64,000 nucleotides of DNA, taken from assembly GCA_001791995.1 (NCBI GenBank), contig MGFR01000002.1:36457-100456 (forward strand). Reading direction: 5' to 3'. Each line of letters begins with the position of its first letter. Positions within the stretch are counted from its first letter, which is position 1. The DNA comes from Candidatus Woesebacteria bacterium RBG_13_46_13 (GTDB lineage Bacteria > Patescibacteriota > Microgenomatia > UBA8517). A model generated the notes under the pieces. That model worked only from the letters and a program-made list of their open reading frames with translations. It was not told the origin of the DNA and made no database searches. A program made the position numbers and the translations under genes. This document shows positions 6,717 through 26,170 of this stretch, in pieces.

Positions 6717-7348
6717 CCGAACTAAAAGACTTAAAGGACGGGCCGTTTGAGGAAAGGGTTGCGGAAGTTGACCGCTGGGTTATTGCCTATGCTTCAGAAG
6801 GGGCGATCGGTTTAATTGACCGGGAGATTCTTAGGGGGGTACTTTCTGAAGTTGGTGCGAATTTTGAAAATTTGGACGAGGACGGTACAAAATCCCTTGC
6901 CCAATACTCCAACAAAGGGAAACATTTGGGAATGGAACAAGTTTGGGGTGAGCGTAGAGCCGAATTTAAAACCTGGACCGAGGCTTGGGTGGAAACTTAT
7001 GAAAGAAGAACAGGAAAAGAGCTTCCGAAAGTGGTTTTTACGGATGAGGAGACAGGCGAGAAAAGACCGTCGAAGACGGAAGGAATGAGGCAGTTATTGG
7101 GTGAGCTAACGGCATATGCATCCGGTTGTCTGAGCTTTCCCGAGTTGGCAAAGATACTGATTACTAGGCGTTATAATTTTGGCAAACCAAAGGATCAGCC
7201 GGCAGAGGAAGGCGGGAGAAGGAAAATTACGTTTTCCGGTCACAATATAAGCCAAGAAACGGGTAAAGAAAAACCTTTTGCTCCGGCTTCTTTTCCTCCG
7301 GAATTTCCCCTGGATGCTTGGGAAAAGATTAAAAGTTGGCGGAAATGA
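6713..7348 (+). CDS. Hypothetical protein (operon member)
   Basis: 211 aa, acidic and charged, no recognisable family. Start overlaps the RimK stop (ATGA) and its stop overlaps the next gene. Confidence 0.5.
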   Translation: MTELKDLKDGPFEERVAEVDRWVIAYASEGAIGLIDREILRGVLSEVGANFENLDEDGTKSLAQYSNKGKHLGMEQVWGERRAEFKTWTEAWVETYERRTGKELPKVVFTDEETGEKRPSKTEGMRQLLGELTAYASGCLSFPELAKILITRRYNFGKPKDQPAEEGGRRKITFSGHNISQETGKEKPFAPASFPPEFPLDAWEKIKSWRK

Positions 7349-7935
7349 CCCCCAGAGACAGCTATCTCAGGCGTTTTCGTAAATACGGAGTTGACCCCAG
7401 GACGCTTAAGTGGCAAAGCCAAAAAGCCGCCGAGCAAAGATATTTGGAGATAACCACCCTTACGGATTTTAACGGAAAGTCTGTCTTGGATGTCGGCTGC
7501 GGTTTCGGGGATCTGGTAGCCTTCATTAATTCCAAAACCGAAAACTTCTCCTATACGGGGATAGACTTGATTAACGAGTTTATTTTAGCTGCCAGAAAAA
7601 AATATCCTGGCTTTAGCTTTGTCATGGGGGACTATTTTTCAGACCCCCTTGAGGAAAAATTCGACATCGTTGTTGCCAATGGGTCTCTAAACTCAAATGT
7701 CCCCGACAATTACGCTTTTAGGAAAAAAGCCATCAAAACAATGTTCGATCACGCAAGGCAAGCGGTTATCTTTAATATGGCAGGAGGGTTTGCTCCCAAA
7801 GAGACGGCCCGGGGAAGTAACGTGTTCTTTGCGGACGCTTCCAAGATAGTCGGATTTTGCGAAAGTCTTACCTCCTCAGTCGTTTTGACAGACCACCCCG
7901 GCCGGCGGGAATTTACCGTAATTATGGCCCGTTAG
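7336..7935 (+). CDS. Class I SAM-dependent methyltransferase
   Basis: Motif I VLDVGCGFGDL and downstream DIVVANGSL are typical of Rossmann-fold MTases. Overlaps the upstream ORF by 13 nt. Confidence 0.65.
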   Translation: MAEMTPRDSYLRRFRKYGVDPRTLKWQSQKAAEQRYLEITTLTDFNGKSVLDVGCGFGDLVAFINSKTENFSYTGIDLINEFILAARKKYPGFSFVMGDYFSDPLEEKFDIVVANGSLNSNVPDNYAFRKKAIKTMFDHARQAVIFNMAGGFAPKETARGSNVFFADASKIVGFCESLTSSVVLTDHPGRREFTVIMAR

Positions 7936-7986
7936 TGCTATAATATCCACGTTCTTTGGCAAATCCAAATCCAAAAGGAGGAGAGC

Positions 7987-8268
7987 ATGGAGGCACAAGC
8001 TTACTTTAACTGGATCCGTCGTCGGGCCGCGACACTGATTGTTGTTTCAGGTTTCCTGATTGTCGGCGCTATTGCGGCCTTCCTCTTCGGCAGGCCCGTG
8101 GTCGGAATGGTTCTGCTCTTGGGAGGGTTCATTCCCGGCTCTATGGCGGGAACCATCGGCTCGGCGAGCGAGCAGAAAGGCTGCTTTTGGTTTGCGGCAA
8201 GCATTATCTGCTGGCTCGCATTTTTGGGAGTGGTTGCCTGGGCTGTCTACGCCAACCTTTTCGGATAG
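7987..8268 (+). CDS. Small membrane protein (3 predicted TM helices)
   Basis: 93 aa hydrophobic ORF preceded by AAAGGAGGAGAGC ATG, a strong SD. Confidence 0.45.
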   Translation: MEAQAYFNWIRRRAATLIVVSGFLIVGAIAAFLFGRPVVGMVLLLGGFIPGSMAGTIGSASEQKGCFWFAASIICWLAFLGVVAWAVYANLFG

Positions 8269-8282
8269 GAAAGCCTCACCAT

Positions 8283-8333
8283 GTGCGCGGGATTATCCCG
8301 AAAGAGATGATTCCGCGCACGAAGTTTTTATTT
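8283..8333. terminator. Stem-loop (GTGCGCGG...CCGCGCAC) followed by a T-rich tract; probable terminator between convergent genes
   Basis: 8 bp GC-rich inverted repeat at 8283-8290 / 8313-8320, followed by GAAGTTTTTATTT. Lies between the stop of the 7987-8268 gene and the stop of rplL. Confidence 0.4.
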
Positions 8334-8729
8334 CAACTCCACTTTTGCTCCGGCTGCTGTTAGCTTATCGCTTGCAGCTTTTGCATCTTCCGCTTTTGCG
8401 TCCTTTAAAACCTCAGCCGGAAGAGTTTCGGTCATACCTTTTGCATCCATCAGAGTCAGGTTTTGATTGATTTCCCTAAGTGCTTTGATAACACCTATTT
8501 TATTTGCTCCTGCGTCCGTCATTACAACAGATTGGGTAGCTGCAGCTGTTGCGGCACCCGCTTCTGCTGCGGCTGGAGCTGCTGCCGGGGCTGCTGCGGC
8601 AACCGGCATCGCCGAGACTCCGAGTTTCTCCTGAAGTGTACTTACCAATTCCGAAAGTTCGATAACCGTAAGTTTGCCTATCTCTTCTGTCAATTCATCG
8701 ACTTTTTTGGTTTTTTTCTCTTCTGCCAT
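8328..8729 (-). CDS. rplL: 50S ribosomal protein L7/L12
   Basis: MAEEKKTKKVDELTEEIGKLTVIELSELV...AAAAPAAAPAAAEAG...KVELK has the classic L7/L12 N-terminal dimerisation domain, Ala/Pro hinge and C-terminal domain. The track ORF extends to a GTG at 8738; the ATG at 8727-8729 is preferred because it avoids overlap with rplJ. Confidence 0.9.
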   Translation of the reverse strand: MAEEKKTKKVDELTEEIGKLTVIELSELVSTLQEKLGVSAMPVAAAAPAAAPAAAEAGAATAAATQSVVMTDAGANKIGVIKALREINQNLTLMDAKGMTETLPAEVLKDAKAEDAKAASDKLTAAGAKVELK

Positions 8730-8730
8730 G

Positions 8731-9249
8731 TTACTCACCGCCTTTCGATTTTAAGATATAAATAAGTTTTTGCATGTTTCCCTCAAGGGTTCCGACCAAT
8801 CCGTAAGAGGGGGAGAGAAGTACTCCCAAGACCTGTCCCAAAAGCACATCTCTGCTGGGAAGGGTGGATATTTTAAGCAGGCTTTCGCTGTCCTGGAAGG
8901 CACCGTCAATTACTCCGACCTTGAGCTTGGGAACCTCGTATTCCTTTGCAAAGGTTCCAAGTATCTGTACCGGAGCAATGGCATCATCTTCACCAACGAC
9001 CAAAGCCGTCTGGCCGGAAAGAATCTCATCCTGGAGAATTTCGGGACTGACCCTAGCGGCTTCCCCCGCGCGTTTTAACAAGGTGTTTTTAACAACCAGC
9101 ATCTTGGCACCCACCTCTTTGAGTCTTCTTTTTAATTCCTGCTGGCTTTTGACGGACAGACCCTGATAATTAATAAGCACCACGGATTTAGCCGTCTTTA
9201 GCTCCTGGGTCAGGTTTTCGACAAAGAATATTTTTTCTGCCTTTTTCAT
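8731..9249 (-). CDS. rplJ: 50S ribosomal protein L10
   Basis: MKKAEKIFFVENLTQELKTAKSVVLINYQGLSV...; canonical rplJ-rplL order. Confidence 0.9.
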   Translation of the reverse strand: MKKAEKIFFVENLTQELKTAKSVVLINYQGLSVKSQQELKRRLKEVGAKMLVVKNTLLKRAGEAARVSPEILQDEILSGQTALVVGEDDAIAPVQILGTFAKEYEVPKLKVGVIDGAFQDSESLLKISTLPSRDVLLGQVLGVLLSPSYGLVGTLEGNMQKLIYILKSKGGE

Positions 9250-17428: not shown

Positions 17429-18475
17429 ATGCCTGCGAAAGCCAAGAAAACCCCCAAGGTCAAACTCCAGACGGATAAAGATGCCTTAAAAAAGCTTAAG
17501 TTGGTCGCCGTTGCCTATTCGCACGTCGAGCGTGAATGGTTTCCCACCGAGGATGCTTATACCGCGGAGGTAGAGGTCGAAGAGCGTGCCCAGGAGGTAA
17601 TCGAGGAAGTGCAAAAACTGGGGATAGAAGTGAAGGGCTACAAGGGCGACCAGTATTTTTTGACGAACCTCTTGGTGGATAAACCCGACTTGGTTATCAA
17701 TCTGGTCGATACGCTCCGGGGGAAGGATAGGCTGCAGACTTCGGTTCCGGCGGCTTTGGAACTTTCCAACATTCCCTATACCGGCGCAGGCATGGAGGGG
17801 CTGATTATCGGCAACAGCAGAAACCTGACAAAAAGGCTGTTTATCGCCTACGAAATTCCGACTCCCCAGTTTCAGTTTATTAGAAGGGCAGGGACCGCGG
17901 TTCTGGAGAGCTTGGGCCTGCCTTTAATCGTAAAACTCAACGAAAGCGGGGGATCAGTGGGAATAGATAACAACGCAGTTAAAGAAACCTTAAAAGACGC
18001 CCAGAAAAAGGTAGACGACATGATATCGGCTTATAAAATACCGGTGGTGGTCGAAAGATTTATCGACGGACCGGAAATTACGGTTGTGGTTTTTGACGAC
18101 GGGGTAAAAAAGCAGGTGTTTATGGGCGAGAAGATTTTCAGGAAGAAGCCCGACGGAAAGCACTTCTTTACCAGTATTGAGTCCTACGACGATTTCGATT
18201 CCTACAGATACAAATTTGTGGCGGAGCCTCTGCAGGGGAAAATTGCGACTCTTGCGGTCAGGGCCTTTAACGGACTGCACCACAAAGACTATGCCAAGTT
18301 CGATATCAGGGTAGAGGAGACAACCGGTATTCCGTATTTTACCGACAGCAATCCCAATACCGCTTTCGGACCGGATAAGGGTCTGCCCATGACCGAGGTA
18401 ATGAATTTATATGGAATTGCCTTCCAAGATACCCTGACCAGCATGTTATCCAAATATGCAAAAACTCTTCAGTAA
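17429..18475 (+). CDS. D-alanine--D-alanine ligase-family ATP-grasp enzyme with N-terminal extension
   Basis: LPLIVKLNESGGSVGI (Ddl-like ATP-binding strand), ...DIRVEETTGIPYFTDSNPNTAFGP... (Ddl-like C-terminal motif), GPEITVVVFDDG. Divergent from canonical ddl at the N-terminus. Confidence 0.65.
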   Translation: MPAKAKKTPKVKLQTDKDALKKLKLVAVAYSHVEREWFPTEDAYTAEVEVEERAQEVIEEVQKLGIEVKGYKGDQYFLTNLLVDKPDLVINLVDTLRGKDRLQTSVPAALELSNIPYTGAGMEGLIIGNSRNLTKRLFIAYEIPTPQFQFIRRAGTAVLESLGLPLIVKLNESGGSVGIDNNAVKETLKDAQKKVDDMISAYKIPVVVERFIDGPEITVVVFDDGVKKQVFMGEKIFRKKPDGKHFFTSIESYDDFDSYRYKFVAEPLQGKIATLAVRAFNGLHHKDYAKFDIRVEETTGIPYFTDSNPNTAFGPDKGLPMTEVMNLYGIAFQDTLTSMLSKYAKTLQ

Positions 18476-19055
18476 CCCTTATTTCCCGGAACTTTCAAGA
18501 GTTACCCAGATAACCTCGTCGCACTGCGGACCGGCGACCCTGGAGATGCTTTTGGGCTTTTTGGGTATCGAAGTTGATCAGGAGGCGATTGTGGAGACAA
18601 CGGGGGTTGGCCAAAAGCTGCCTGTTCACGGCATGATAATCTCCGAGATGGGGGAGGCCGTCAGGAAGCTGGCTCCCCAAGTGCAGTTTTGGTTTAAGGC
18701 CAATTCCAGCTTAAACGAGTTAAGCCAGTTGGTAAGAAATTATAAATACCCTGTAGGAATAGAATGGCAAGGGGTCTTTTACGAGGATGCGGATGATGAC
18801 AACGGACACTACAGCGTGATTACCCATATCGACACAACCAACAATATCATTATGGTTGCCGACCCCTACAAGCGCTTTGCTGGAACCGACAGAATTTTCC
18901 ACATTCTGGAGTTTGAGGACAGATGGTGGGACGAAAACGAGATTAAGGACCCCTATACGGGAAAGGTAAGCCAGGAGAGAGATTATCACATGATGTTTGT
19001 GATTACCCCCAAACAAGAAAATTTTCCCGAAACTTTTGAGATGATACGGGGTTAG
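18456..19055 (+). CDS. Papain-fold cysteine peptidase-like protein (C39-like / BtrH-N-like)
   Basis: QITSSHCGPATLEMLL has Gln, then Cys-Gly in the nucleophile position, and a downstream GHYSVITHID candidate catalytic His. Overlaps the preceding ATP-grasp gene by 20 nt, suggesting translational coupling. Confidence 0.5.
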   Translation: MQKLFSNPYFPELSRVTQITSSHCGPATLEMLLGFLGIEVDQEAIVETTGVGQKLPVHGMIISEMGEAVRKLAPQVQFWFKANSSLNELSQLVRNYKYPVGIEWQGVFYEDADDDNGHYSVITHIDTTNNIIMVADPYKRFAGTDRIFHILEFEDRWWDENEIKDPYTGKVSQERDYHMMFVITPKQENFPETFEMIRG

Positions 19056-19058
19056 CCC

Positions 19059-19376
19059 CTAGCGGAAAAGGATCAGAAGAACCACGGTTAAAATTCCGAA
19101 GAAGAGAAGCCAGGCGGTAGTTGCCAGAACAACCCGAATGGCTTTTTTGGTTTCTTTTTTCTCCCACCACAGGAGAAACGGATAATACCCGAAAAGAAGC
19201 GTACAGATAATTACCGAAAGAACAAAGATTAGAAGGAAGAGGGTCGGCCCCAGGAAATTATCCATGTTACCGAAGATGGAATTTCCGCCCCACATCAGAA
19301 GACCGATCAAGCCCACATATACGGCTAATCCTAAGGCCTGAAGAAAAGCGATAAATTCCAGCGATAGTTTTTTCAT
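19059..19376 (-). CDS. Small membrane protein (3 TM helices)
   Basis: 105 aa hydrophobic ORF. Confidence 0.4.
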   Translation of the reverse strand: MKKLSLEFIAFLQALGLAVYVGLIGLLMWGGNSIFGNMDNFLGPTLFLLIFVLSVIICTLLFGYYPFLLWWEKKETKKAIRVVLATTAWLLFFGILTVVLLILFR

Positions 19377-19424
19377 TGCCCCTTTAATTATACAGAGTCA
19401 TATCAACTCGTCTATGTTATACGG

Positions 19425-20321
19425 TTATCTTCGGGAACGAACAAGAAACGCAATTGATGCCAGCAAGAGTATTCCTGCTGATGCAATTATTGCGGCGGAC
19501 TTAAAAGGTGAGCTTGGGGTTGGGGGAGTTATTGTGACTTCGCGGGTTATCTTTTCAGAGACGGTTGGCGTCGGGGAGGAGGTTATAACTGGCTTTTGTG
19601 TCGGAGTGGGTGAGTTTACGGCAAGAGCGGCTTTTGCCGATAATTCATTAGAGATCGGTCCAAGGGTGCACCCGTTTCCCGGAATCACTATAAAATAGTA
19701 AATTACACCGGTACCAAGACTTCCTACCGTATACGAGGTGGTGTTTGCTCCTCCAACGTTGGGGTTGCCAAAAATATAAGTTCCCTTTTTCGTTCCGTAA
19801 TAAACGGTATAAAAAGTTACAGGGTCGGTTGCCTTCGTCCAGGTGAGTTTGATCTGGGAATTAGATATCGGAGTTGCCGAGACAAGTTTAGGAGGGCCAC
19901 CCGGGGCGGCGTCGGTGCAGGTGGTGGAATAAAAAGTCACGTGTCCGATTCCCGGGAGGGCAACGTTCTGGGTTTTATCGACGATATCGAGCGAATCGAC
20001 TCCTTCCTTGGTCGATTTGATGTAAAAAACTGCCTTACCCGAGCTATCGAGCTTGTTTGATTCAGGAGCGACTATAGCCGAGGGATCATCTGTCACCACA
20101 ACGCTTACTTCCTCTCCTGCCAGGGGAGTGCCGTAGGCATCCTTCACAGTAACGGTTAATACCGCCTCGGTTTTCCCATCGGCCGGTACTCTATCGGAGC
20201 CGGACATCGTAGCTACGATACTGGAACTATGAAAATCAGGAGAATTGTAAGCTGCCGTCCATTTGGAAAAAGCAAAAAAGAAAGCAAGAAAAAGAAAGGC
20301 TATTAATAATATTTTTCTCAT
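19425..20321 (-). CDS. Secreted/cell-surface protein with Ig-like/FN3-like beta domains and C-terminal TM anchor
   Basis: N-terminal signal (MRKILLIAFLFLAFFFAFS). Beta-rich repeats (TVTVKDAYGTPLAGEEVSVVVTD; KLTWTKATDPVTFYTVYYG is FN3-like). C-terminal SAAIIASAGILLLASIAFLVRSRR anchor. Confidence 0.5.
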   Translation of the reverse strand: MRKILLIAFLFLAFFFAFSKWTAAYNSPDFHSSSIVATMSGSDRVPADGKTEAVLTVTVKDAYGTPLAGEEVSVVVTDDPSAIVAPESNKLDSSGKAVFYIKSTKEGVDSLDIVDKTQNVALPGIGHVTFYSTTCTDAAPGGPPKLVSATPISNSQIKLTWTKATDPVTFYTVYYGTKKGTYIFGNPNVGGANTTSYTVGSLGTGVIYYFIVIPGNGCTLGPISNELSAKAALAVNSPTPTQKPVITSSPTPTVSEKITREVTITPPTPSSPFKSAAIIASAGILLLASIAFLVRSRR

Positions 20322-20385
20322 ATATTTATTATAGACAGGTACCCTGAGAGGGTGAAGTATTGAAGGCAGTAATTCTGAAGTTGGC

Positions 20386-20482
20386 AGGCCTTAGTATCCG
20401 AACTTCGAACAATTTGGCACGAAGTGAGCTCGTTTGACATAAACAAAATGCGAGGATTTATAAATCCTCACCCAGTTTTTGC
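20386..20482. repeat. Island intergenic repeat, full copy 1 (core A ACTTCGAACAATTTGGCAC, core B AATCCTCACCCAG)
   Basis: About 80% identical to 22264-22362. Core B lies about 60 nt upstream of the start of the 20538 gene. Confidence 0.6.
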
Positions 20483-20537
20483 TTAAAGATATAAATTGCA
20501 TTAGAATCGCCTGGCTAGTAAATTAAAAAAAGAGCGT

Positions 20538-21194
20538 ATGAAAGCCATTTTGGGAAGAAACAAACAACTTATGGATGTTTTTCTAGATTTAGACCCACTA
20601 CCTGTCAATAATACTGATGAGGAAGTCGGTAGGAGTTTTTTATTTAGATTTCGACCTAATTTAGCAAACATTGGAAAACGAACGAAGCAAATAAAAAGGA
20701 TTGGGATGGCATACGATACCCCAAGTGTTGCGATGTACGATCAAGCAAAAGATCTTTATAGTCTCGGATATTTTGTCTCTTCAATAATAGTTTGTAGGTC
20801 TACTGCAGAATATTTGGCGTTTGAGATATTTCTTGAGGAGGTTGAGCTGGAAGGTAAAACGGAGATTATAGAGTCAGTAGCGGAGAGTTTAGATTTTAGA
20901 AAAGTAGTTAACGAGTTTCTTTATAATCCAAAAAAAGGTTTTGCGTATATTAACAAGGACACGCACGACATATTTAATAATCTTTATTCATTGGCTAACA
21001 ATTGGGTTCATCCTAGAAAGATCAAGGATAAGGTTAAAATCGAAAAAGTTGCATTTAAGTCACTGGAAATGCTAGGTTCTTTACTTTCATCTCTTCGAGA
21101 TGTGATGAAAGATTATAAAGTTGTTAAAGGTTCACTAGTAAGGAAAGCTACTGCAAGAAAGAAAGTTAGGCCAATTATTTTGGGACACAAGTAA
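20538..21194 (+). CDS. Hypothetical protein (AT-rich island)
   Basis: 218 aa ORF in a low-GC segment, no family recognised. Confidence 0.45.
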   Translation: MKAILGRNKQLMDVFLDLDPLPVNNTDEEVGRSFLFRFRPNLANIGKRTKQIKRIGMAYDTPSVAMYDQAKDLYSLGYFVSSIIVCRSTAEYLAFEIFLEEVELEGKTEIIESVAESLDFRKVVNEFLYNPKKGFAYINKDTHDIFNNLYSLANNWVHPRKIKDKVKIEKVAFKSLEMLGSLLSSLRDVMKDYKVVKGSLVRKATARKKVRPIILGHK

Positions 21195-21204
21195 ACAGAA
21201 TAAG

Positions 21205-22197
21205 TTAGAGCCCGAGGAGAAGCAGCTTACTTGGATCTAATTGTTCAACAAAATGATATTCCCCAGTTTTTCCGTCCTTCAGCTTATATGTAATTTTTTC
21301 GGAATTACGAACAGTCATTGAACCCAACATTACAATTTTGCCATCAATTATGGTCCCTATATGTCCGGTTGGGAATAATAGACCGTTTTGACTAACAATT
21401 GCGGCCAAAATGTGACCTCCAACGGTTGCAAACTTGTATTTTATGCTCTCTTTGTTTACGAAGCTCATCAATGTTTCGGCATCCTTGTACATTACCGACT
21501 CCAAGTTCACCGCATTTCTTTCCCCGAATTCAAGCTCTGAAAGTAAAAGGGGTGGGACAACGACCGTTACAGACTTTTGATTTGGATGAAAAGCGACATA
21601 AGAATACAAAGGCACCTCATTTTTTACAAAAGTACAGTTCCTAACATCAATTTCCAGCGTAATCATTCTCGTTTGGGGATAGTCTATTTCAACATACATA
21701 CCTTTTGTTAATTGGCCGTTATTTTTTGACATTGCATTTACAAGACCATCAATTATGTCCTGGTCGATTGATTGGTGCATATGGGTGCCTTCACCCCTCG
21801 CTTTTAAGGGATTAGACATATTGTTTCCTAGAATTGAGCTTTCTATGGTTTGCTTTTTAGTTGGGTTAAAACCTGCGATTATGAGGGCGACATTTCCATA
21901 CCTTCCTGTCGAATTGACGTATTCACTTATTATAGTTTTTAGATCAGTGTCAATAATACTTTCGAGCTCATCAAAAGAAGAACTCTCTTTAATTTTAGAT
22001 TTGAGGTCATTTAGTATAAAAGAAGCAGGGGCAGCGTCTCCGGCTTCAAGAGCATCGATTTGATGGTTGAGCACGAATGCTTTTATCAAATCATCATCAT
22101 ATTTATCTGGTCTACCATCCGAGTATCGAGTTGTGGCTCTAGTATCAGAAACAAGAAACATTTTCTTGGCCAGATGAACCCCCAGAATCAGTGACAT
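21205..22197 (-). CDS. Hypothetical protein (AT-rich island); N-terminus uncertain
   Basis: The track ORF runs to 22311 but its 5' end overlaps the conserved intergenic repeat. An internal Met (MSLILGV... or MFLVSD...) is more likely the start. Confidence 0.4.
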   Translation of the reverse strand: MSLILGVHLAKKMFLVSDTRATTRYSDGRPDKYDDDLIKAFVLNHQIDALEAGDAAPASFILNDLKSKIKESSSFDELESIIDTDLKTIISEYVNSTGRYGNVALIIAGFNPTKKQTIESSILGNNMSNPLKARGEGTHMHQSIDQDIIDGLVNAMSKNNGQLTKGMYVEIDYPQTRMITLEIDVRNCTFVKNEVPLYSYVAFHPNQKSVTVVVPPLLLSELEFGERNAVNLESVMYKDAETLMSFVNKESIKYKFATVGGHILAAIVSQNGLLFPTGHIGTIIDGKIVMLGSMTVRNSEKITYKLKDGKTGEYHFVEQLDPSKLLLLGL

Positions 22198-22263
22198 TTG
22201 ACAGATTATAGCATTCCAAATTAAGCACGGGGGACGAGGACTACGTACACTGAATGTGAGGGC

Positions 22264-22362
22264 GGGCCTTAGTATATCAACTTCGAACAATTTGGCACAA
22301 GATGAGCTCATTTGATGTAGATAAAGTCCAACAATTTCTTAATCCTCAACCAGCAATTGCTT
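22264..22362. repeat. Island intergenic repeat, full copy 2
   Basis: GGCCTTAGTATATCAACTTCGAACAATTTGGCACAAGATGAGCTCATTTGATG...TTTCTTAATCCTCAACCAGC. Core B is 48 nt upstream of the 22401 gene. Confidence 0.6.
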
Positions 22363-22400
22363 ACAATTAACCGGCAATATAGAATTTAGGCATCGCTAAA

Positions 22401-22793
22401 ATGAAAAGATTGTCCCCAAATGAAAAATGGAACAGATTTAATAAAAAACTAGAGGAGTTGATGAAATCGAATGATTTTTATGGTTTGGGAGTAATTTATC
22501 AGGAAATGGCCAACTTCTTAAATAATGAAGGGAAAGATTCCAAAGAAATGCTTAATAAAGCCCATGAGATGAAGCTCACACATCACAGAAATTATATAAA
22601 GAATTTACGATACGATTCTCCAATCTGTGTAGGGGTTGAGGTTCGTTGCACAGATGATAGTTGTAGAAGCTGTAAAAGCTTGCAAGGTAAAGTTTTTGAT
22701 TTTGATAAAGCCATAGAGACAAATCCTTTACCTGTTAGAAATTGTAGCCATGAATATGGTTGCAGGTGTGTTTATCTTCCTGTAGCTAATTGA
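22401..22793 (+). CDS. Hypothetical protein with Cys-rich C-terminus (possible zinc ribbon)
   Basis: 130 aa; the C-terminal segment ...CVGVEVRCTDDSCRSCKSLQGKV...CSHEYGCRCVYLP carries several Cys pairs. Confidence 0.45.
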   Translation: MKRLSPNEKWNRFNKKLEELMKSNDFYGLGVIYQEMANFLNNEGKDSKEMLNKAHEMKLTHHRNYIKNLRYDSPICVGVEVRCTDDSCRSCKSLQGKVFDFDKAIETNPLPVRNCSHEYGCRCVYLPVAN

Positions 22794-22807
22794 GTGGAGA
22801 AAGGTCA

Positions 22808-22835
22808 AGAGTTTCTTAATCCTCGGCCAGCCTTC
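22808..22835. repeat. Island intergenic repeat, half copy (core B only: TTTCTTAATCCTCGGCCAGCC)
   Basis: 40 nt upstream of the 22869 gene. Confidence 0.5.
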
Positions 22836-22868
22836 GGTCTTACCTAATTTCTGATAAAATATGGCTGT

Positions 22869-23390
22869 ATGAAGATGGATCAGCTGATAGACAAGAAGAA
22901 GTTGAAACATCCAGACTTTTGGTTTGTTAAGGCACACGCATACGCTTCAGCATGCCTTTTTATATTAGAAGAATTTTCCAGGGCGATTAAAGACAAAGAC
23001 GGGGAGAATAGGACTAGACTAAAAGAAGTTACTCTTAGCCTCTCTTCCGTTGGGGCAACTCCCTATTTAGTCGGAATTTCTAGCGAATTGTATATGAAGG
23101 GGTACTTAATATCTAAAGGAGAAAAACCTGACGCGCTAAAGAGGGTAGGTCACAACTTAAAAACCATTAGAGAAAAATGTGCAACTTTTGGAGACCCGAG
23201 GTTTAATGATAAAGACCTAATCTTTCTTGCCGATACTCTTGGCAAATATTTGATGGAGGATGGGGGAGTTAGATATCCAGATAAAAATGACTTACCTATT
23301 TATATACCAATTTTTAAAAACATTTTAAATATGTTTCATAAATTAAGTATTGAAGTGTCAGACACCCCTGCTAAAGGAGAAGATACTTGA
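22869..23390 (+). CDS. Hypothetical protein (AT-rich island)
   Basis: 173 aa, predicted helical, no confident family. Confidence 0.45.
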   Translation: MKMDQLIDKKKLKHPDFWFVKAHAYASACLFILEEFSRAIKDKDGENRTRLKEVTLSLSSVGATPYLVGISSELYMKGYLISKGEKPDALKRVGHNLKTIREKCATFGDPRFNDKDLIFLADTLGKYLMEDGGVRYPDKNDLPIYIPIFKNILNMFHKLSIEVSDTPAKGEDT

Positions 23391-23392
23391 TT

Positions 23393-23440
23393 TAAATAGT
23401 TCCACTTCGAACAATCTGGTGCAGGATAAGCCTTGAGATG
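23393..23440. repeat. Island intergenic repeat, half copy (core A-like: CACTTCGAACAATCTGGTGCAGGATAAGCC)
   Basis: Similar to the first half of the full copies. Confidence 0.45.
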
Positions 23441-23579
23441 GGGAAGATACAATAATTTCTAGGTTCAACATATGTTTCAATAACGATAACCAGCAACTAA
23501 ACTGGGTGAAATTCAAATATTTATTTCAAATGGAACCAATGTTTTTTCAAGTTATGATAAATCTTTATAGACTAGATAT

Positions 23580-24497
23580 TTAATATTTCTTAAAATCAGT
23601 AAGTCTTTCAAAAATCTTTTCCATAGCCTCAGCAAAAGTACCAGAAATAGGAATAGTATTTCCGCTCCTGCCAGAACTAGTATTCCATTCTTCAAACTTT
23701 TGTTTATCACCCACATAGAAAATGTTCGCATGGGTTTCTCTTAGAGGATCCCATATATGATAATCTTGTGGGTAAGGCTTTACTCCCACAATTATTACTT
23801 GTTTTACATTGAGTATTAGATTTTTCCACTCCTTTTGGATATGCTCAATAAAATCAAAACCTAATGGAGCCGGTTTATTCTCTGTAAAAAGAGCCATTAC
23901 TGGATACAAAGGGGTATCACTAGTTAATTTTTCAGTTACTTTTTCGGGGGTGTTTAGTGAGTATATTGGCGCTTTTATTCGCATATCTGAACTAAAATTG
24001 ACATACCTATTCATTCCCTCAAAATCGAGGAACCAGTTGCATGAACCATGAAGTTTTATAAGTAATATACCTCCTTTATTGGGGGGAATAAGATAATTTG
24101 TTTTAAAACCATTTCTAGTAAGTTCTCCGTCAAGCAAGCAATCATAATTAAGTGTTGATAGTATTGTGTCATCGCTTTTTATCTTAATAAGATATTTAAT
24201 AATCTCACCATATCGGGTTTCATTTTTTGGAGTGAATCTATTAAAGTAAATACCTAATTGTTGGAGCAATAAAGAAGATATATCGCTGTGTTTTTTCCAT
24301 AATGAGTCCATACCTTTTTCAAAATTTTGCAAAAATAAAGTATTGAGATCTTCTGGCAGCTTTCCCCAGGTGTCCGGAAACGTAGAAACTAATATAGAGT
24401 GAAGTTCTCCTCCCAATGGAGGTTGATGGGGAAAAATGTCCCCGCAGTCATGACTTGCACCAGCACCAAATAAAAATACGGTATTAATCTTACCCAT
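23580..24497 (-). CDS. SIR2-like domain protein (SIR2_2 / DUF4020-type NAD-binding fold), standalone
   Basis: N-terminal VFLFGAGASHDCGDIFP matches the SIR2_2 signature (LFxGAGxS...G.P), and LIKLHGSCNW supplies the HGS motif. 305 aa, no fused effector or sensor domains. Confidence 0.6.
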   Translation of the reverse strand: MGKINTVFLFGAGASHDCGDIFPHQPPLGGELHSILVSTFPDTWGKLPEDLNTLFLQNFEKGMDSLWKKHSDISSLLLQQLGIYFNRFTPKNETRYGEIIKYLIKIKSDDTILSTLNYDCLLDGELTRNGFKTNYLIPPNKGGILLIKLHGSCNWFLDFEGMNRYVNFSSDMRIKAPIYSLNTPEKVTEKLTSDTPLYPVMALFTENKPAPLGFDFIEHIQKEWKNLILNVKQVIIVGVKPYPQDYHIWDPLRETHANIFYVGDKQKFEEWNTSSGRSGNTIPISGTFAEAMEKIFERLTDFKKY

Positions 24498-24675
24498 TTT
24501 AAGCCCGCCTCGTTCATCAAGTATCCAGGTACATGTCCAAATACCATGGAAATCTACTTAAAATTCTCTTCGCCCTTGACTTTTCTATATAATATCACTT
24601 GAGGCTAGCAGGGGCTAGAAACTATGTAGGGAACTTTTTCAAGGTTGAATTTCACCAAGTTGATATGATTTATTA

Positions 24676-24906
24676 ATGAAGTGCTATTATATGAGTAAGA
24701 TGAAAAAGGAATCTGTAATAGGAATCCTAATATTGTTGGGTTTGGTTTATTGGTTTGCGATTAGACCATCAAACATAAGAAGCCATTGTCACAATCTTGC
24801 TGATGAAAACGCAAGAATTTGGGCAACGTCGGTAAAGGATGGTAAGGAAAGTGAAATATATGACCGTTCACTGGAAAAGTGCATCAATGAAAAAGGATTG
24901 AGGTAA
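24676..24906 (+). CDS. Small secreted/membrane-anchored protein
   Basis: 76 aa with an N-terminal hydrophobic segment (SVIGILILLGLVYWFAI) and two Cys. Confidence 0.3.
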   Translation: MKCYYMSKMKKESVIGILILLGLVYWFAIRPSNIRSHCHNLADENARIWATSVKDGKESEIYDRSLEKCINEKGLR

Positions 24907-25021
24907 GAGGCTTCATCCGCCCAGATAAGAAACTTCTATTATCTAAAAGCACCACCTTCGGGTATGCACCGTAGTATAATTATCTTGTAGGTAAAGAGAG
25001 TTCTCTAAGTAAAAGAAGGGA

Positions 25022-25237
25022 TTGAGGATGATCGGTACTAAAGTTATCTTAACAGTATTATTTAATGTTGCGGGTATTGTAATTATCGCTTGGGGTATGT
25101 TCAACGACAAAATTTGGGTTATGGCAGTCGGCGGTGCGCTTACGGGCATAGTAATTGGGCTTATGTACGACGACTTGTTAGGTCAGATTAGGGATGTGAA
25201 GATTGACGAAGAAGAGGAAGAAGAGGAGGACCAGTGA
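25022..25237 (+). CDS. Small 2-TM membrane protein with poly-Glu C-terminal tail
   Basis: 71 aa; ...KIDEEEEEEEDQ. Confidence 0.35.
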   Translation: MRMIGTKVILTVLFNVAGIVIIAWGMFNDKIWVMAVGGALTGIVIGLMYDDLLGQIRDVKIDEEEEEEEDQ

Positions 25238-25247
25238 GGAGCTACCA

Positions 25248-25451
25248 ATGAAAGAGGATGAAATTAAAAAAGAAAAAAAGAAGTTAAATAAGTATTTTAT
25301 ATTCTTTTTGATATCTACGGTTGGGTCAATGGTTCTCGGAGATGATAGCCAACTAGGTATGATATTTTCGGCGTTATCACTCATTTCTTTAATTGTTTTA
25401 ATTGCAAAAGGGGTTGACTACAAGAGGAAAGTTAACGAAATAAAAAAGTAG
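25248..25451 (+). CDS. Small membrane protein (start uncertain; track ORF begins at 25203)
   Basis: A lysine-rich N-terminus followed by two hydrophobic helices. Confidence 0.3.
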   Translation: MKEDEIKKEKKKLNKYFIFFLISTVGSMVLGDDSQLGMIFSALSLISLIVLIAKGVDYKRKVNEIKK

Positions 25452-25456
25452 TCCTG

Positions 25457-25527
25457 CAGGGGCGGAGAGAATCGAACTCCCATTGCGGGTTTTGGAGACC
25501 CGCGTCCTACCATTGAACGACGCCCCT
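25457..25527 (-). tRNA. trnW: tRNA-Trp (anticodon CCA)
   Basis: Reverse complement: AGGGGCG TC GTTCAATGGTAGGAC G CGGGT CTCCAAA ACCCG CAAT GGGAG TTCGATT CTCTC CGCCCCT G. The acceptor stem pairs, the anticodon loop is CU-CCA-AA, and the T-loop is TTCGATT. Confidence 0.85.
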
Positions 25528-25565
25528 AGACAAGCGCAATTATACCAATTTTTGGGTTTGGATGC

Positions 25566-25742
25566 TTATTTCAGCTTCGAGGATTCTTTATGGGGGGTAA
25601 CCTTCCGGCAGGTTCTGCAGTACTTGTTAAGCAGCAGCTTCTTTTCTTCCATGTTGATCTTGTTCCTTTCGGTAAGATAGTTCTGGTTCTTACAGACGGA
25701 ACAAAGCAAGGCTACATGTTCTCGCGCACCTTTTTTTGCCAT
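25566..25742 (-). CDS. rpmG: 50S ribosomal protein L33
   Basis: Manual translation gives MAKKGAREHVALLCSVCKNQNYLTERNKINMEEKKLLLNKYCRTCRKVTPHKESSKLK, 58 aa, with the CxxC...CxxC L33 zinc ribbon. Missing from the ORF track (under 60 aa). Confidence 0.8.
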   Translation of the reverse strand: MAKKGAREHVALLCSVCKNQNYLTERNKINMEEKKLLLNKYCRTCRKVTPHKESSKLK

Positions 25743-25784
25743 ACGTTGCGTATTTTACCTAAAGCAGGCTCTCTAAACAATAGG

Positions 25785-25856
25785 GAGCCGAGGGTGGGAA
25801 TCGGACCCACGACCTAGTCATTACCAATGACTTGCTCTACCACTGAGCCACCTCGG
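25785..25856 (-). tRNA. tRNA-Thr (anticodon GGT)
   Basis: Reverse complement: GCCGAGG TG GCTCAGTGGTAGAGC A AGTCA TTGGTAA TGACT AGGTC GTGGG TTCGATT CCCAC CCTCGGC T. Acceptor and anticodon stems pair; anticodon GGT. Confidence 0.85.
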
Positions 25857-26009
25857 CGCATGAGAATTATATCAAAAACTTGCTATACTCAAAGAAATGA
25901 GCCGTACCCAAGCCCTGCTTCTGATTCTTGCCGCAGCCTTCTTTATTGTCCTGATCTACGTTGTCAGCCACCTTACGGCCTTTGGCCCTTCGGGAGTCTT
26001 CAAATAGGG

Positions 26010-26094
26010 TGCTGGGACTAGGATTCGAACCTAGGTAGGCCTTTCGACCGCCAGATTTACAGTCTGGTGCGATTGTCCGCTCCGCCATCCCAGC
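26010..26094 (-). tRNA. tRNA-Tyr (anticodon GTA, long variable arm)
   Basis: Reverse complement: GCTGGGA TG GCGGAGCGGACAATCGC ACCAGA CTGTAAA TCTGG CGGTCGAAAGGCCTACC TAGG TTCGAAT CCTAG TCCCAGC A, a type II tRNA. Confidence 0.85.
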
Positions 26095-26095
26095 T

Positions 26096-26170
26096 TGGAG
26101 CCGACGAGTGGATTCGAACCACTGACTTGCTGTTTACAAAACAGCTACTCTACCGCTGAGTTACGCCGGC
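26096..26170 (-). tRNA. tRNA-Thr (anticodon TGT), CCA encoded
   Basis: Reverse complement: GCCGGCG TA ACTCAGCGGTAGAGT A GCTGT TTTGTAA ACAGC AAGTC AGTGG TTCGAAT CCACT CGTCGGC T CCA. Confidence 0.85.

Follow-up and report, generated by a model that had tools for sequence, protein, structure and literature searches.

A short standalone SIR2 gene in a Woesebacteria genomic island: a candidate single-gene, NAD+-depleting anti-phage effector

What does an SIR2 enzyme do when it is encoded as a bare catalytic domain? This question is raised by a gene within a 64,000-nucleotide (nt) stretch of the Candidatus Woesebacteria bacterium RBG_13_46_13 genome (contig MGFR01000002.1; the whole 64 kb stretch is hereafter the window, and coordinates count from its first letter). 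At 23580-24497 on the minus strand lies an intact, ATG-initiated open reading frame (ORF) encoding a 305 amino acid (aa), single-domain SIR2 protein, which its sequence suggests is a probable nicotinamide adenine dinucleotide (NAD+) glycohydrolase (NADase) effector. In the well-studied SIR2 NADase effectors, a sensor accompanies the enzyme in every case, whether HerA, STAND, pAgo, KomB, SLOG with TIR, or a large C-terminal domain. From sequence motifs, a predicted structure, the genomic context of homologues, and analogy with known systems, we favor with modest confidence the reading that this gene encodes a single-gene, NAD+-depleting abortive-infection effector against phage, built of the catalytic domain alone. 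For this protein we infer NADase rather than transferase chemistry, an anti-phage role, auto-inhibition, and a trigger.

We began from the gene itself. Its product was 100% identical to A2V61_02490, an NCBI hypothetical protein from Candidatus Woesebacteria bacterium RBG_19FT_COMBO_47_8. A word-indexed search returned 63 more homologues (down to E 1e-107), all of approximately 300 aa. Because of this identical protein and the 63 further homologues, 23580-24497 is not a chance ORF. Among those 63 homologues, the precomputed Pfam domains comprised a single SEC-C motif. An earlier note on this DNA, made from the sequence alone, had described a 305 aa ORF with GAGxS and HGS motifs. Both were present in the translation, the former within VFLFGAGASHDCGDIFP (residues 7-23, nt 24429-24479) and the latter within LIKLHGSCNW (residues 146-155, nt 24033-24062). 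The gene arrangement was also as the note had described it. A spacer of 189 nt separates the SIR2 gene from a convergent 173 aa gene (22869-23390, plus strand), and the SIR2 gene has its own 178 nt upstream region (24498-24675, minus strand), in which GAGG, resembling a Shine-Dalgarno sequence, precedes the ATG by 10 nt. Beyond these 178 nt lies an ORF of 76 aa in divergent orientation. Given the convergent gene on one side and the divergent ORF on the other, the SIR2 gene is monocistronic and transcribed on its own.

Does the protein retain what is needed to bind and cleave NAD+? An alignment of 57 family members revealed residues that were invariant in all 57: G11-A-G-A-S15, N117-Y118, H150-G151, G238, and D245. 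The G11-A-G-A-S15 codons (24453-24467, minus strand; translation-checked) specify the Rossmann NAD-binding loop, which aligns to GAGAS in the SIR2 protein of E. coli SIR2-HerA (8j4u). Those for N117-Y118-D119 (24141-24149, minus strand) specify a putative catalytic Asn/Asp motif aligning to N163-Y-D165 of PsSIR2, the SIR2 protein of Paenibacillus SIR2-HerA (8w9l). The putative catalytic His is found in H150-G151-S152 (24042-24050, minus strand), which aligns to KLHGS (H212) of PsSIR2. Residues N163, D165, and H212 of PsSIR2 have themselves been named as putative catalytic residues (PMC11472057). In the profile alignment to PsSIR2, LNYD fell on TNYD and KLHGS on KLHGS, and the partners N163, D165, and H212 were assigned by counting. 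When searched against the PDB, the family profile matched the Paenibacillus protein 8w9l with E 6.8e-6 and E. coli Nezha 8j4u with E 1.2e-3.

The predicted structure agreed with these assignments. An AlphaFold2 model calculated with the family alignment as input (predicted local distance difference test, pLDDT, 95.8; predicted template modeling score, pTM, 0.93) showed the whole 305 aa as one SIR2 domain, a Rossmann-type fold with a small helical domain. All 50 matches listed by Foldseek against the PDB were SIR2 proteins, with E. coli SIR2-HerA (8sub_K, E 8e-8) and Avs5 at the top. In structural comparison, three structures of SIR2-HerA SIR2 subunits scored 18.6, 17.2, and 15.9, with about 250 of the 305 residues aligned. 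Scores for other SIR2 proteins were 14.8 (Af-Sir2), 14.1 (KomC), 13.6 (ThsA), 13.0 (Avs5), 12.9 (SirTM), and 11.1 (FAM118B). The earlier note had suggested structure prediction and comparison to ThsA as a check; these support the SIR2 fold, with ThsA at 13.6 and the SIR2-HerA SIR2 subunits at 15.9-18.6. We conclude that the window protein, a single SIR2 domain, is a complete enzyme of the defense-type, SIR2_2-like branch, with an intact NAD+ site.

Such a fold might instead serve an NAD+-dependent transferase or deacylase, similar to SirTM or the sirtuins, which would act on a specific protein or nucleic-acid target and have a role in mobile-element biology or regulation. We consider this quite improbable. 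A zinc-ribbon (CxxC...CxxC) was absent from all 57 members, the window protein having three Cys and no CxxC, and PF02146, the classical sirtuin family, matched neither the window protein nor the family members. On these grounds a CobB-like deacetylase is ruled out, and the proposal in the earlier note that the protein is not of the deacetylase type is supported; neither of the outcomes that the note named as refuting it, placement with CobB-like deacetylases or lack of any SIR2 match, was obtained. Classical sirtuins (CobB, Sir2Af, SIRT1-7; PF02146) carry a zinc-ribbon, whereas the short family lacks one, has a different small domain, and shows a mobile, patchy distribution. This spread through prophage hotspots and islands is atypical for housekeeping regulators. 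In addition, the best sequence and structure matches were defense NADases, and neither a macrodomain nor GcvH-L/LplA (the SirTM operon context) was seen among the neighbors. Single-sequence searches with the SIR2 protein gave no match in NCBIfam, PHROGs, or the PDB (phmmer), nor did tblastn against 50,697 phage records. The best single-sequence match in Pfam and the PDB, GARS_C/PurD, was spurious (E 0.04-1.2, C-terminal part only).

Is the sensor-less build peculiar to this gene? An exhaustive hidden Markov model search of 1.84 billion cluster representatives (50% identity clusters) yielded a family of 811 proteins at E<=1e-30, rising to 1853 at E<=1e-10. Among the 811 representatives, the 150 with the best matches were almost without exception 290-340 aa long and matched the profile end to end. 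As these are full-length, the sensor-less architecture is the family norm and not a truncation. The gene had been described in the earlier note as standalone with no fused sensor, which fits both the window protein, whose 305 aa are all SIR2 domain, and the usual build across the family. Members were found in Firmicutes, Gammaproteobacteria (including Raoultella and E. coli), Verrucomicrobia, Victivallales, Altimarinota, Bathyarchaeia, and Hodarchaeales, and on 15 IMG/VR viral contigs. In the literature searched, this short (approximately 300 aa) SIR2 family was nowhere described. It is overlooked by current annotation tools: PADLOC 2.0 and NCBIfam have no model of their own for it, and Pfam matches it below threshold. 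A catalytic-domain-only family of at least 811 clusters prompts one to ask what holds NAD+ destruction off, and what then switches it on, in place of a dedicated sensor.

To place the family in its genomic context, flanking ORFs from about 45 homologue loci were clustered, and related loci were searched with a 12-sequence subfamily alignment. In P2-like prophages (L025, L027, L029, L030, and two E. coli genomes), the SIR2 gene lies between portal gpQ and DinI/replication gpA. The gpQ-gpA locus of P2, home of old and tin, was shown experimentally to be a defense hotspot by Rousset et al. (PMC9122126). In E. coli 22AR0750 this hotspot holds WP_148996919.1 (L037 7088-7987, equivalent to NZ_CP195454.1 1150053-1150952). 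Family members at gpQ-gpA were present in 2 of 5426 complete E. coli genomes, and WP_148996919.1 offers a convenient experimental entry point in a standard host. In lambdoid prophages (L031-34) the homologue sits between lysozyme/Rz and Nu1/terminase. Others were found with Shedu, Kiwa, an IS481 transposase, and TrwC nearby (L009), beside a SacI-type restriction-modification pair and a NERD protein (L004), or in recombinase or integrase elements (L007 and L008). Functions recurring near homologues included type I restriction-modification, AbiEi/AbiEii, DUF4238, AriA-like ATPases, mad genes, and PDC-S05, together with the integrases, resolvases, and phage genes of mobile elements. The hotspot placement of homologues supports a defense role. 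No neighbor was conserved family-wide across these loci, and the neighbors of the window gene never recurred beside homologues. A census of the domains in 145 non-redundant proteins from the flanks found every family at most three times.

A separate arrangement was observed in three Syntrophomonas-like loci (L010 638-2370, L042 4177-5909, and L043 323-2055), where a conserved pair of 221 aa and 357 aa proteins is encoded directly before an SIR2 homologue 46% identical to the window protein. The census, which gives matches without the names of the proteins, also contained single PADLOC matches to AbiEi and AbiEii (E 1e-78 and 1e-126), as well as a Pfam match to DUF6577. Most plausibly, these matches belong to the 221 aa and 357 aa pair.

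How might a lone SIR2 domain act in defense? We propose that a single-gene cassette was acquired horizontally into a small variable island beside tRNA-Trp. The resting enzyme would be auto-inhibited, by analogy with PsSIR2 of SIR2-HerA, whose own small domain blocks the NAD+ pocket (PMC11472057). A phage-derived cue could relieve this inhibition through direct binding to the SIR2 protein or through a shift in its oligomerization. The latter would resemble the rings and filaments of SIR2-HerA, KomBC, ThsA, Avs5, and FAM118B, from which triggered assembly is suggested by analogy. NAD+ would then be hydrolyzed to ADP-ribose and nicotinamide, and the infected cell arrested.

Several observations weigh against this reading. 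On its own, the window protein reached 12.3 bits with Pfam SIR2_2 (PF13289; E 0.19, residues 113-155 only), below the gathering threshold of 24.5 bits, and PADLOC SIR2 models matched it at E 0.004-0.03, which is sub-threshold or weak. P2 hotspots hold non-defense cargo too (PMC9122126), two homologues (L001 and L006) lie amid housekeeping genes, and the E. coli copy is labeled 'hypothetical protein' in RefSeq. The nearest solved relatives, KomC and the SIR2 of SIR2-HerA, are inactive without their partners; a self-sufficient bare domain is therefore not the default expectation. Finally, the main precedent for autonomy, the CRISPR-supervised sole-Sir2, is larger and has an extra N-terminal module.

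These scores also bear on how the family should be classified. When the 57 members were searched one by one, 31 matched SIR2_2 at E<0.1 (best E 3e-5), and no DUF4020 match was seen for the window protein. The family is best described as a divergent sister of Pfam SIR2_2, not as a formal member of PF13289. The earlier assignment to the SIR2_2/DUF4020 clade is thus right about the SIR2_2-like branch, which family profile and structure both indicate; it goes too far for PF13289 itself (12.3 versus 24.5 bits) and for DUF4020.

A bolder form of our proposal is that the bare domain of approximately 300 aa is a self-sufficient sensor-plus-effector immune protein, which would be the smallest known SIR2 defense system, carried as a one-gene cassette across distant hosts. 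We regard this as tentative, at somewhat below even chances. The protein would sense infection with its small domain, or by assembling with itself when triggered, and the cassette would move between phage hotspots and islands in E. coli P2 prophages, candidate phyla radiation (CPR) bacteria, and Asgard and Bathyarchaeial archaea. Like the window gene, sole-Sir2 is a single standalone Sir2 without a partner gene. This protein of approximately 440 aa has NADase activity, a homologue of it protects against T2 and T4, its extra N-terminal substructure is the presumed sensor, and its Sir2 domain is DSR2-like (bioRxiv 10.1101/2024.12.27.630466). It shows that protection by an SIR2 protein is possible with no partner gene. 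The short family, by comparison, is all-catalytic at approximately 300 aa and nearest to SIR2-HerA rather than DSR2, a separation made on length and structural neighbors.

Could the window gene be a remnant or variant of a known multi-component system? SIR2-HerA/Nezha (GAO_19; 8w9l, 8yhx, 8j4u, 8sub) provided the structures closest to the window protein, at 16-19% identity only, and its SIR2 subunits are 360-408 aa compared with 305 aa. HerA was neither beside the window gene nor a recurrent neighbor in the homologue loci, and with no HerA at the loci examined, a degenerate SIR2-HerA system is ruled out. Kongming KomC (9v0g, 8zsf) needs KomB (HAM1) for an active complex and KomA, an adenosine deaminase, for deoxyinosine triphosphate (dITP). 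No HAM1 or deaminase match was found in the genes flanking the window SIR2 gene, and Kongming families were not among the best 25 of 88 families for the 145 proteins flanking homologues. Thoeris ThsA couples SIR2 to SLOG (or Macro) and works with the TIR protein ThsB, whereas the window protein lacks SLOG and Macro and the window lacks a TIR gene. DSR1/DSR2, Avs5 (SIR2-STAND), and SPARSA (SIR2-APAZ/pAgo) all have a large sensor module, either fused, in proteins of approximately 800-1000 aa, or supplied by a pAgo partner; the window protein has neither.

Alternatively, the SIR2 protein may do no sensing of its own and await activation in trans. The activator would be a partner that varies or is unlinked: for example, a small zinc-ribbon protein, a TIR-made signal, or an ATPase encoded elsewhere. 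The window copy would then depend on an unrecognized partner or be orphaned. We judge this unlikely, at perhaps one chance in a handful, with subclade-specific observations in its favor. In Raoultella sp. C349492 (L005), a CAP12/PCTIR-type TIR protein (7095-7958) ends 43 nt upstream of an SIR2 homologue (8001-8891) beside prophage tail genes. This arrangement is like that of Thoeris, but with a short SIR2 protein that has no SLOG, and a TIR neighbor occurred at a single one of about 45 loci. At 8 of these loci, an ORF of 80-120 aa with the same orientation as the SIR2 gene encodes a CxxC...CxxC zinc-ribbon and abuts or overlaps that gene, on its upstream or its downstream side depending on the locus (L004 8926-9291; L016 5299-5574; L045 1785-2090; L014 2435-2977; L015 369-614; L048 4003-4245; L051 1824-2072; L052 243-488). 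Fusions were also found, with zinc-ribbon repeats at the C-terminus of two members (P0093 and P0113) and a SEC-C zinc motif at the N-terminus of another (P0053). The zinc-ribbon protein may be a partner, sensor, or inhibitor specific to a subclade. That the closest solved SIR2 proteins require HerA or KomB points the same way.

Most loci, however, had no such neighbor, and neither a zinc-ribbon ORF or fusion nor a TIR neighbor was found in the window or in the closest subfamily of the window protein. PADLOC on the 71 ORFs of the window found no HerA, TIR, pAgo, STAND, or SLOG partner, in line with the earlier note, which had seen none of HerA, pAgo, STAND, or SLOG nearby. The ShosA/PsyrA matches that PADLOC returned were housekeeping DprA, and the best 25 of 103 Pfam families on the window ORFs were all housekeeping. 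Moreover, the SIR2 protein lacks SLOG, Macro, and any other ligand-binding domain with which to receive a signal, and the uniform build of the family at approximately 300 aa argues for an autonomous unit.

How did the gene come to be in this genome? It sits in a 5.1 kb low-GC island (20322-25455) together with other orphan or defense-like cargo. The GC content of the island was 36.4%, compared with 47.7% for the rest of the window. That of the SIR2 gene was 34.4%; the lowest 918 nt segment outside the island had 38.9%. Because the GC of gene and island falls far below that of the rest of the window, we conclude that the SIR2 gene was acquired horizontally and is of foreign origin. The 3' end of a tRNA-Trp (CCA) gene abuts the right edge of the island (25456-25527, minus strand; ARAGORN, Rfam). 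Searches for an integrase in the island and for an att-like repeat of the tRNA-Trp 3' end were both negative. To our knowledge, few defense systems have been recognized in CPR bacteria, to which this small-genome Microgenomates host belongs. The SIR2 gene is a candidate single-gene system for this group, and the small tRNA-flanked island gathers defense-like cargo that includes a HEPN-fold gene.

Recent transfer could also mean that the SIR2 gene is inert cargo, unexpressed or non-functional in its Woesebacteria host. Its strongly atypical GC would be compatible with this, as would the orphan status of the other island genes and the lack of a recognizable promoter, scans for sigma-70 and terminator consensus sequences at the locus having scored at chance level. 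Against it, the ORF is full-length with no frameshift or truncation relative to homologues, every family-invariant residue is kept, and the Shine-Dalgarno-like GAGG precedes the ATG. We consider inert cargo very unlikely and retain the abortive-infection effector as the favored interpretation.

The remaining island genes were then considered as possible partners or fellow cargo. The convergent 173 aa gene had been proposed in the earlier note as a possible second member of a minimal one- or two-gene system, to be checked for a TIR- or HEPN-like fold. Its predicted structure was all-alpha and HEPN-like, which ruled out a TIR fold. The sole homologue found for this protein is in another Woesebacteria genome, at an SIR2-free locus, and the gene never recurs beside other members of the SIR2 family. 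These results do not support the two-gene system, which we reject, and they leave the standalone, one-gene layout in place. A 218 aa orphan gene is further island cargo, with no mutual similarity between its product and the 173 aa protein.

On the minus strand, a 368 aa ORF (21205-22311) belongs to a rare family of about seven members, each approximately 328 aa long, with a Pfam Proteasome (PF00227) Ntn-hydrolase domain. Its annotated N-terminus overlaps a repeated element, and for this reason it probably starts at an internal Met to give a product of about 330 aa. One homologue of this ORF (L076) lies in a recombinase/integrase element, where a 234 aa gene directly precedes it and an RT-Mrr protein is encoded after it. 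The 130 aa protein at 22401-22793 (plus strand) has a C-terminal Cys/His-rich segment (residues 87-128), a zinc motif resembling that of MuF/SPP1 gp7. With E 1e-3 to 1e-4, this segment weakly matches the C-terminus of the phage Mu F/SPP1 gp7 minor head proteins and, in PHROGs, a head-maturation family. Its sequence thus suggests phage-derived cargo. PDB sequence searches with the 218 aa, 330 aa, and 130 aa proteins gave nothing significant.

The repeated element is intergenic and approximately 100 nt long. Full copies, 78% identical, precede the 218 aa and 130 aa genes (20383-20485 and 22261-22363), and half copies flank the 173 aa gene (22794-22831 and 23401-23431). It matched no Rfam family and had no copy elsewhere in the window. 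A copy before the SIR2 gene was considered and rejected, as alignment gave only a weak resemblance of approximately 19 nt there. Within the island, the element may serve several genes as a common promoter or leader, or it may be a sequence at cassette junctions.

Several features mark the island's borders. Just inside the right border are small ORFs (24676-24906, 25022-25237, and 25203-25451) encoding membrane or low-complexity peptide-like products. The border itself (25456-26170, minus strand) consists of tRNA-Trp, ribosomal protein L33 (25566-25742), tRNA-Thr(GGT), tRNA-Tyr, and tRNA-Thr(TGT). At the left border (18456-20321), a 199 aa Peptidase_C39-like protein and a 298 aa surface protein with Big_1 and fn3 domains are encoded at host GC.

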